From IMG/VR virus record IMGVR_UViG_3300033075_000468: DNA of 64,000 bases; one strand, 5' to 3'. Position numbers and translations under genes: made by a program. Origin of the DNA: a virus. The notes beneath the pieces are model-generated. The model did not search any database. It was not told the origin of the DNA and saw only the letters and a list, made by a program, of their open reading frames with translations. Shown piece after piece: positions 49,865 to 50,405 of the stretch (positions are counted from its first letter, which is position 1; the number at the start of each line of letters is the position of its first letter).

Positions 49865-50062
49865 ATGAGAGATAAGCATGAGATTTTAGTAAAGTACGTA
49901 GGTGTTGGTCCAGATCACGCCACATTCATAAGCGCTGGTTCAGATGAACTACCATTTGGTAAAACTGAGTTCTTTGATATGCCTTTACCAATATGGCACG
50001 ATATGGACAATCCGCATATTCTAACTCTTACGATAGTTCCTGGGGATCAACTTAATGGCTAA
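49865..50062 (+). CDS. Hypothetical protein; start trimmed to the first ATG after the tRNA fragment.
   Basis: ORF MRDKHEILVKY..., 65 aa. Confidence 0.3.
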   Translation: MRDKHEILVKYVGVGPDHATFISAGSDELPFGKTEFFDMPLPIWHDMDNPHILTLTIVPGDQLNG

Positions 50063-50405
50063 AGAACTTGCTTTCTCCATTACGAAGAAAGATTTCAGGT
50101 TCGATTACTTTAGGGCTGGTGGACCCGGTGGGCAAAATCAGAATAAGCGTGACACTGCGTGCAGAATTACTCACATAGAGTCAGGAATTTCTGCTGAATC
50201 TAGAGAATATCGGACGCAGTTAGAAAATAAGCAAGCGGCATTCAGAAAGTTAACGTCAAAGCCACAGTTTAGGGCCTGGATAAACCAACAACTAAATGGT
50301 TTATTTAAAGAGTCCCCTGAAGAAGTTGTAGAAAAACAGATGGCGAGAGACAATTTATTAATTGAATGTCGTGATGCTGATGGTTCATGGGTTTCCATGG
50401 ATTAG
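50055..50405 (+). CDS. GGQ-motif peptidyl-tRNA hydrolase, RF-1 domain or ArfB-like.
   Basis: FRAGGPGGQNQNKRDTACRITHIESGI matches the class I release factor / ArfB GGQ domain. It is 116 aa with a basic C-terminal region. Confidence 0.65.
   Translation: MAKELAFSITKKDFRFDYFRAGGPGGQNQNKRDTACRITHIESGISAESREYRTQLENKQAAFRKLTSKPQFRAWINQQLNGLFKESPEEVVEKQMARDNLLIECRDADGSWVSMD

Follow-up and report, generated by a model that had tools for sequence, protein, structure and literature searches.

A phage-encoded stand-alone GGQ-domain protein in a tRNA island and its relation to known release and rescue factors

The mini-RF gene and its neighbours

The window, that is the whole stretch of 64,000 nucleotides analysed here, belongs to the IMG/VR virus record IMGVR_UViG_3300033075_000468. 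The phage origin given in the initial annotation is borne out by the portal, prohead protease and capsid genes of the same window, which also encodes an intein-containing class II ribonucleotide reductase, ThyX and a WhiB-like regulator. The closest cultured relatives according to the portal protein (49% identity) are Streptomyces phages of 125-131 kb of the Annadreamy/BillNye type (cluster BE-like), and these relatives together with the WhiB-like regulator point to an actinobacterial host. ARAGORN identified 22 tRNAs in the whole window, 19 of them on the + strand in an island and co-oriented with the gene under study, which encodes a mini release factor (mini-RF). The features of the locus are collected in Table 1.

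Table 1. Features identified in the window, with their coordinates and the evidence for each
Feature	Position	Strand	Evidence
RNA-repair pair: RlaP nucleotidyltransferase (45209-46012) and ATP-dependent RNA ligase (46002-47264)	45209..47264	+	Pfam, PHROG
tRNA island, 19 standard tRNAs with small ORFs and homing endonucleases interspersed	49644..63678	+	ARAGORN, Rfam
3' fragment of an ancestral tRNA-Gly, with T-arm, acceptor strand and CCA	49838..49866	+	Alignment to the intact tRNA-Gly of L168
Small upstream ORF, 65 aa	49865..50062	+	Gene calls in close relatives L001-L005 and L168 only
Predicted Shine-Dalgarno-like GGGGA, 8 nt 5' of the mini-RF ATG	50042..50046	+	Direct sequence reading
Mini-RF gene, stand-alone RF-1/GGQ domain protein	50055..50405	+	ORF listing, Pfam, PHROG, dN/dS
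GGQ catalytic domain (aa 1-69), counterpart of domain 3 in class I release factors	50055..50261	+	Pfam, hhalign, AF2
GGQ codons, catalytic motif (aa 25-27)	50127..50135	+	Direct sequence reading, homolog alignment
Family-specific C-terminal module (aa 70-116), two helices and a beta-hairpin	50262..50402	+	Alignment, AF2, hhalign
Non-canonical tRNA-Ala(UGC)-like gene, 74 nt, 6 nt after the mini-RF stop	50411..50484	+	ARAGORN -ps95, Rfam
Small downstream ORF, 56 aa, revised GTG start (most likely) after GGAGGA (50496-50501)	50507..50677	+	Sequence, L168 gene call

The mini-RF gene is found at the 5' end of the tRNA island, between tRNA-Gly(tcc) (49644-49717) and tRNA-Val(tac) (50686-50758), as its earlier placement inside the island had it; two more tRNA-like elements, both sub-threshold, flank it closer still. 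The ORF starts with ATG, ends with TAG and encodes 116 aa, and the GGQ peptide quoted in the initial annotation, AGGPGGQNQNKRDTACRITHIESGI, was read in it at aa 21-45. Promoter and terminator scans around the gene gave counts no better than those in shuffled sequence. The exact protein recurs on 14 metagenomic contigs, and an 86%-identical homolog with the same synteny is present in L168, a contig of 135 kb. The two genes share 78.6% of their nucleotides, with dN 0.091, dS about 2 (saturated) and dN/dS about 0.045, which indicates strong purifying selection.

The stop of the small upstream ORF overlaps the start of the mini-RF by 8 nt (ATGGCTAA), and in ScottMcG and Nanosmite the upstream ORF overlaps it by 4 nt. 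The mini-RF lies in the +1 frame and GGGGA precedes CTT-AAT-GGC-TAA; a prfB-style +1 frameshift fusion of both ORFs was considered. It was rejected because neither a stop nor a rare codon is present at the shift site, the upstream ORF lacks conservation and the N-termini of the family align at the Met; ordinary translational coupling is the favoured reading of this arrangement. On the other side, the downstream gene most likely starts at the GTG listed in Table 1, and the gene caller gave a 57-aa product at the equivalent place in L168. A 96-aa ORF delimited mechanically from 50387 overlaps the tRNA-like element. Neither the upstream nor the downstream ORF has a Pfam or PHROG match, and no homolog of the two was found beside the mini-RF in other lineages. 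A 'split PrfH' or obligate adjacent partner was also rejected, since the neighbouring ORFs cluster among close relatives only and have no family match.

The tRNA-Ala-like element has G3.U70, A73, canonical anticodon and T-loops and a weak D-stem. It escapes standard scans: ARAGORN reports it at no setting but the 95% threshold (-ps95), and Rfam gives a weak tmRNA-clan match of 11.9 bits. It is identical to its counterpart in L168 at 70 of 74 positions, compared with 79% for the neighbouring CDS and 59-100% (median about 72%) for the bona fide tRNAs common to both, and a G6-to-A change in L168 turns G6.U67 into an A-U pair. The element is probably functional. A recurrent tRNA-Ala beside the mini-RF, as an alanine link of RQC or tmRNA type, was rejected, the adjacent isotypes varying by lineage (Asp/Glu, Ser/Cys, Leu, Lys, Glu, Gly).

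The tRNA-Gly fragment lies directly 5' of the cassette, at the position occupied in L168 by an intact tRNA-Gly, and no 5' acceptor strand matching the fragment was found. Upstream of it, the lineage of the window carries an HNH gene (49240-49653) and a different tRNA-Gly copy, which fits an endonuclease-driven remodelling of the array.

The RNA-repair pair is located 3 kb upstream of the mini-RF, in the same + strand block, and is kept in L168. Pfam identified RlaP with E 1.3e-20 and RNA_ligase with E 6e-11, and the corresponding PHROGs are 388 and 968. Such pairs have been interpreted as phage counter-measures to anticodon nucleases (PMC7824862), and the pair in the window may be functionally linked to the mini-RF. 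No tmRNA was identified in the window at the gathering threshold. Stop-codon recoding as the reason for carrying a release factor was rejected: ORFs are intact and stay long under code 11, one of them reaching 3379 aa, and the window has no suppressor tRNA.

Catalytic domain and C-terminal module

The RF-1 domain proposed for this protein was recovered by the HMM search, PF00472 matching aa 5-69 with 71.2 bits (E 8.9e-20, gathering cutoff 35). PHROG 3122 ('RF-1 domain peptide chain release factor') matches nearly the full length, aa 1-114, with E 1.7e-25, and solved release factors of the PDB match at E 1e-13 to 1e-9. In the AlphaFold (AF2) model, with a mean pLDDT of 84.7, the domain is formed by strands 14-19, 35-40 and 46-49 and helix 55-68. 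It is a complete domain of the RF1/RF2/PrfH type, made up of three strands with the GGQ loop and the beginning of the long helix, and carries a charge of +6. The alpha-i insertion typical of E. coli-type ArfB/ICT1, as defined in the release-factor classification used here (PMC6514570), is absent.

The catalytic motif is conserved: GGQ, and with it Q27, is kept in 206 of the 207 collected homologs, the sole exception reading GGH. Residues D13, G25, G26, N30, R37, H40, Q55, N58, A62 and W75 are invariant in an alignment of 30 sequences. Catalytically dead relatives such as MRPS35 lose the Gln (PMC6514570).

The C-terminal module is modelled as helices 70-83 and 88-95 and strands 103-106 and 112-115. 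Its conserved features in the homolog alignment are F72, W75, M96, an N-L-x-I-E strand and a distal Trp. The net charge of these last 47 aa is -4 in the window protein, with a family median of 0 and a range from -6 to +8. By hhalign the homology to PrfH, RF2, RF1 and ArfB-like profiles is confined to aa 4-69, and the module gave no profile match to the C-termini of PrfH, RF1, RF2 or ArfB-like proteins.

Family distribution and genomic context

A word-indexed search identified 137 relatives of the mini-RF, mostly of 105-140 aa. An exhaustive profile search of 1.84 billion representatives (E <= 1e-30) gave full-length matches in at least 152 clusters at 50% identity, nearly all of them single-domain proteins of 105-150 aa, and relatives are present on 267 viral contigs of IMG/VR. 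Among cellular genomes the full-length members are sporadic and found in unrelated phyla, a distribution that fits prophages or mobile elements. The carriers include Saccharibacteria, Chloroflexota, Peptococcaceae, Brevibacillus and Cohnella, and also Mycolicibacterium, Rhodobacteraceae and Flavobacteriaceae.

This breadth bears on one origin that could be proposed, a non-functional fragment of host prfA or prfB captured by the phage. The closest sequence matches of the protein are indeed domain 3 of cellular RF1 and RF2. Against it stand the dN/dS value, the maintenance of both length and C-terminal module across the clusters and viral contigs counted above, and the N-terminus, which aligns at the start codon across the family. 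A pseudogene fragment is excluded on these grounds, its probability being negligible.

Placement in tRNA arrays is recurrent. Of the 52 non-redundant lineages compared, 13 carry a tRNA less than 1 kb from the mini-RF, in 14 the gene is part of an array of at least five tRNAs, and in seven it has tRNAs on both sides within 2 kb. Beside the gene there are 0.49 tRNAs per kb, and the density declines with distance, reaching about 0.2 per kb at 8-9 kb. In each of the 34 loci with tRNAs inside 3 kb, these tRNAs all share the orientation of the mini-RF; a tRNA ends 1 nt before the predicted mini-RF start in at least four lineages, and several of the arrays contain a tmRNA. More than half of the lineages have no tRNA or RNA-repair gene within 5-10 kb, and in cluster C mycobacteriophages the gene is located outside the tRNA array, between DNA polymerase III alpha and RecA.

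RtcB was identified within 10 kb of the mini-RF in seven of 80 viral loci. In L040 and L045, which are mycobacterial array elements, it follows the mini-RF at about 165 nt, and phage Nanosmite and Mycolicibacterium palauense also have it near the gene. An association of the whole family with RlaP or with an Rnl-type RNA ligase was rejected, as these were found in 1/80 and 0/80 loci respectively and are lineage-specific. An unbiased Pfam survey of the neighbourhood, covering 300 ORFs in about 37 lineages, revealed no dominant or conserved partner gene: DnaB, RecA and HNH were each found in three to four, and RtcB and NAPRTase in two each.

Part of this distribution was already described. Morgado and Vicente (2018, PMC5966550) observed that one class of mycobacterial tRNA arrays (G1) is built around an RF-1-domain gene, noted Pth and tmRNA in mycobacterial arrays as well, and proposed a role in rescue. 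In the release-factor classification of Burroughs and Aravind (2019, PMC6514570) the word 'phage' never occurs and the family is absent, and a survey of huge phages names RF1 and RF2 as the only release factors. No biochemical or genetic study of any phage member of the GGQ family was found in the literature searched.

Proposed role and comparison with known factors

The most likely reading, with about an even chance, is that the mini-RF is a stop-codon-independent peptidyl-tRNA hydrolase acting on stalled ribosomes. The GGQ domain would occupy the A site on the large subunit and bring Gln27 into the peptidyl-transferase centre, where the ester bond of the P-site peptidyl-tRNA would be hydrolysed. 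Since the protein has neither a decoding domain nor a polybasic tail, the target would have to be chosen by the C-terminal module, by kinetic competition for an A site that has long stood vacant, or by the two together. Expression would come from the early/middle + strand block, jointly with that of the phage tRNA array. Ribosomes stalled during infection by host tRNA depletion or cleavage, or by mRNA decay, would then be recycled, and the ribosome supply for phage proteins kept. Against this role stand the absence of a conserved partner gene, the many lineages with no tRNA or RNA-repair gene nearby and, above all, the anchoring elements on which the characterised stand-alone GGQ factors depend; a codon-independent release factor could also be toxic if unregulated.

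Immune systems that cleave tRNAs (PrrC, RloC, PARIS, Septu and retron effectors) are being actively studied, as are the phage tRNAs by which they are countered. Replacement of the tRNAs leaves an already jammed ribosome stuck, and a co-expressed phage release factor would supply the missing 'unjamming' step. The suggestion of the initial annotation, that the phage frees ribosomes stalled when defence systems cleave tRNA or mRNA, is plausible; it draws on the tRNA arrays, on RlaP and the RNA ligase in the window and on RtcB adjacency elsewhere, associations that are not family-wide.

The same lack of a decoding domain would make the factor codon-blind, and could serve a manipulation of translation, either as premature release on host ribosomes (shut-off) or as competition with RF1, RF2 or PrmC that alters termination and read-through. 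The position in the early/middle gene block agrees with such a role, as do CUA-anticodon (amber suppressor-like) tRNAs identified at a relaxed threshold within 0.8 kb of some relatives. Yet no feature suggests discrimination between host and phage mRNA, the window shows neither recoding nor a suppressor tRNA, and the strict conservation of the catalytic Gln speaks against a purely competitive or decoy function. Manipulation is thus very improbable.

Among the known factors, domain 3 of RF1 and RF2 has the highest sequence and fold similarity to aa 4-69 of the mini-RF. Domains 1, 2 and 4 of these proteins, including the PxT or SPF motifs that read the stop codon, are absent in the 116 aa of the mini-RF. 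The NCBIfam models gave 66 bits for prfB, 62 for prfA, 60 for prfH and 36 for ArfB; scores are far under the curated cutoffs because only domain 3 aligns, and for RF1/RF2 they were 56-66 bits against full-length cutoffs of 370-423.

ArfB (YaeJ) and mitochondrial ICT1/mL62 share with the mini-RF the architecture of a stand-alone GGQ domain in a single polypeptide of about 115-140 aa, without domains 1, 2 and 4. Both hydrolyse peptidyl-tRNA in a codon-independent manner, and the polybasic C-terminal helix of ArfB, carried on a flexible linker, binds the empty mRNA channel. The mini-RF had been annotated as ArfB-like, which is right for the architecture and for nothing beyond it. The cutoff of the ArfB model (NF006718) is 100 bits, while the protein scored 35.6 and its alignment covers no more than aa 7-38; the GGQ domain is nearer to RF1, RF2 and PrfH in sequence and fold; and the polybasic tail is missing, its place being taken by the roughly neutral module of two helices and a beta-hairpin. 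Should the protein turn out to be merely a weak ArfB analogue, it would be an ordinary, correctly annotated accessory translation gene.

C12orf65 (mtRF-R, MTRFR) is a eukaryotic, organellar factor, its GGQ domain devoid of the alpha-i insertion, with a basic C-terminal helix, and works with MTRES1 on split large subunits. By analogy, the mini-RF could release peptides from split 50S-peptidyl-tRNA complexes, and since neither mRNA nor the decoding centre has to be touched in that mode of action, the missing basic tail would be accounted for. However, the module of the mini-RF is neutral to acidic and no conserved partner of MTRES1 type was identified, and RF1, RF2 and PrfH, which act on the 70S ribosome, are nearer in sequence and structure. 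Release from split subunits is therefore quite unlikely.

PrfH is, like the mini-RF, a truncated homolog of class I release factors with a GGQ domain, active in PrfH, and a GGPGGQ(N/H)Q signature. It acts independently of stop codons and is the best, though marginal, profile match to the GGQ domain of the mini-RF. With group HMMs PrfH ranked first in 66 of 100 family members (medians 78, 76 and 72 bits) by small margins, on a panel of genome-scan proteins biased by the motif used to collect them; the domain thus leans weakly towards PrfH by sequence, a placement that is not conclusive. PrfH has about 205 aa, with an N-terminal ribosome-recognition domain of about 100 aa and a C-terminal 'LERGNPVRxFKG' strand, and both are absent in the mini-RF, where 12 residues precede the initial strand of the GGQ domain. 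Its score with TIGR03072 is 59.7 bits against a cutoff of 166.65, with model positions 103-164 of 200 aligned, and by hhalign only aa 8-69 align, to PrfH 110-171.

The partner of PrfH is RtcB2, and the mini-RF genes adjoining rtcB in some lineages echo the prfH-rtcB operon. A damage-coupled rescue could be proposed from this likeness, where ribosomes with a cut 16S decoding centre or a cut A- or P-site tRNA would be released and a ligase (RtcB, or Rnl with RlaP) would then reseal the RNA. We consider it unlikely. The recognition domain that reads the damaged A1493 end is wholly missing, the sequence lean is small, RtcB is present within 10 kb in fewer than 10% of the viral loci, and RlaP or a ligase is nearly always lacking there. 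In the window itself no RtcB homolog was found, and the RNA ligase is not adjacent to the mini-RF.

The characterised stand-alone GGQ factors each need an extra anchoring element, whose loss abolishes substrate activity (PMC12829566). The anchors are the basic tail in ArfB and ICT1, the recognition domain in PrfH and the basic helix plus MTRES1 in C12orf65; CgPrfH without its tail, for instance, does not rescue intact ribosomes, and the channel sensors all use basic residues (PMC12829566). The mini-RF family might form a distinct, so far unrecognised class of single-protein rescue factor, a possibility that is doubtful but carries further than the preceding ones. The neutral module would replace the basic tail of ArfB, ICT1, SmpB and ArfA and the recognition domain of PrfH, and the factor would free empty-A-site ribosomes on intact mRNA, as an anti-defence module encoded beside replacement tRNAs and sometimes RNA ligases. 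Were this the case, release would occur at the 'hungry' codons left by tRNA depletion or cleavage, a state that host factors sensing the mRNA channel resolve poorly. No stand-alone GGQ factor known before the mini-RF would have had neither a basic anchoring tail nor a recognition domain, and the protein could reveal the minimal requirements for placing the GGQ loop in the peptidyl-transferase centre.

The likeness over the whole length is with the phage RF-1 family of SEA-PHAGES, represented by ScottMcG gp204, Bxz1 gp200 and Nanosmite gp140, proteins of the same size (about 110-120 aa). The mycobacteriophage proteins are 41-48% identical to the window protein over 96-97% of the length; no Streptomyces cluster BE-like phage is among the phage records that match it. 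The window gene, from an uncultured phage, is new and divergent, given that its identity to any isolate phage is at most 48%, and is a member of a catalogued and already annotated, functionally uncharacterised phage family, of which tractable members exist in mycobacteriophages. What it has in common with this family, that of PHROG 3122, is both the GGQ domain and the C-terminal module with its conserved W...M...NLxIE...W pattern.

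tRNA-like elements and the gene next to the mini-RF

A non-canonical tRNA-Ala(UGC)-like gene was identified next to the mini-RF (see table). This element presents a canonical anticodon loop and T-loop together with G3.U70 and A73, and its D-stem is weak. In L168, a 135-kb contig of a relative phage (86% identity at the amino-acid level), 70 of the 74 positions are identical (95%) whereas the adjacent CDS reaches only 79%, and a single substitution in the L168 copy re-establishes pairing. Apart from this element, no tRNA for Ala, Cys, Trp or Tyr belongs to the window's standard set.

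The mechanically called ORF downstream of the mini-RF comprises 96 aa. The true start of this gene is probably the GTG at 50507, preceded by GGAGGA (50496-50501) and giving a product of 56 aa, which is consistent with the 57-aa gene call in L168. No family match was found for the downstream ORF.

A second tRNA-like element is an orphan 3' fragment formed by the T-arm, the acceptor strand and CCA, and a tRNA-Gly occupies the equivalent position in L168. Immediately upstream of the fragment are an HNH endonuclease gene (49240-49653) and another copy of tRNA-Gly(tcc), 59% identical. A homing-endonuclease-associated replacement seems to have left the fragment, along with the segment 49240-49717, as its scar.

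Features identified in the window and in related loci
Feature	Position	Strand	Remark
Giant ORF, 3379 aa	17219-27358	-	Structural (minus-strand) module
Class II (B12-dependent) ribonucleotide reductase with inserted intein	35916-39017	-	Pfam matches
RlaP-family nucleotidyltransferase	45209-46012	+	First gene of RNA-repair pair 45209-47264
ATP-dependent RNA ligase	46002-47264	+	Overlaps RlaP-family gene
Homing-endonuclease genes	47293-47805, 49240-49653, 54161-54487, 55415-55828, 60946-61281	+	
Orphan tRNA 3' fragment	49838-49866	+	Matches L168 tRNA-Gly 3' end
Mechanical ORF, 96 aa	50387-50677	+	Collides with tRNA-Ala-like element
tRNA-Ala(UGC)-like gene, non-canonical	50411-50484	+	Overlooked by standard ARAGORN and at the Rfam gathering threshold
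WhiB-like transcription factor gene	59095-59373	+	Window
WhiB-like transcription factor gene(s)	17423-17731, 18529-18897		L168
Shortened release factor, 155 aa	5962-6429		L103, Singulisphaera sp. chromosome

Other genes of the window and the host

Homing-endonuclease genes are numerous within and near the tRNA island, all on the plus strand; the five genes comprise three paralogous ORFs with the CANCH(R/S) HNH motif, one HNH_3 protein and one free-standing LAGLIDADG endonuclease. The intein of the ribonucleotide reductase also bears a LAGLIDADG domain, with Pfam Intein_splicing and LAGLIDADG_3 identified inside aa 399-700. The giant ORF may code for either a tape-measure protein or a giant tail protein. 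The WhiB-like genes and a Streptomyces-phage-like portal (49% identity) suggest an actinobacterial host, notwithstanding the window's G+C of about 43%.

Relatives of the mini-RF and known systems

In the mycobacterial tRNA-array elements (L040 and L045, both 10001-11729; L093) tRNA-Asp lies 1 nt upstream of the mini-RF and tRNA-Glu 7 nt downstream of it; the array also includes a tmRNA, and an RtcB ligase gene follows the mini-RF after about 165 nt. Near the mini-RF of two unrelated viral contigs (L070 and L080), at a distance of about 0.7-0.8 kb, ARAGORN at a relaxed threshold identified tRNAs labelled 'Pyl', whose CUA anticodon is of the amber-suppressor type.

The L103 protein contains the GGQ domain and an RF2-type C-terminal region and lacks domains 1 and 2. 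It resembles an RF2 truncated at the N-terminus and represents a type of shortened release factor distinct from that of the phage mini-RF family. The pair formed by RlaP and the RNA ligase, also kept in L168, is of the module type proposed for repairing anticodon-nuclease damage, and the mini-RF and RtcB arrangement of the mycobacterial elements parallels the prfH-rtcB operon, where release factor H is paired with the RtcB ligase.
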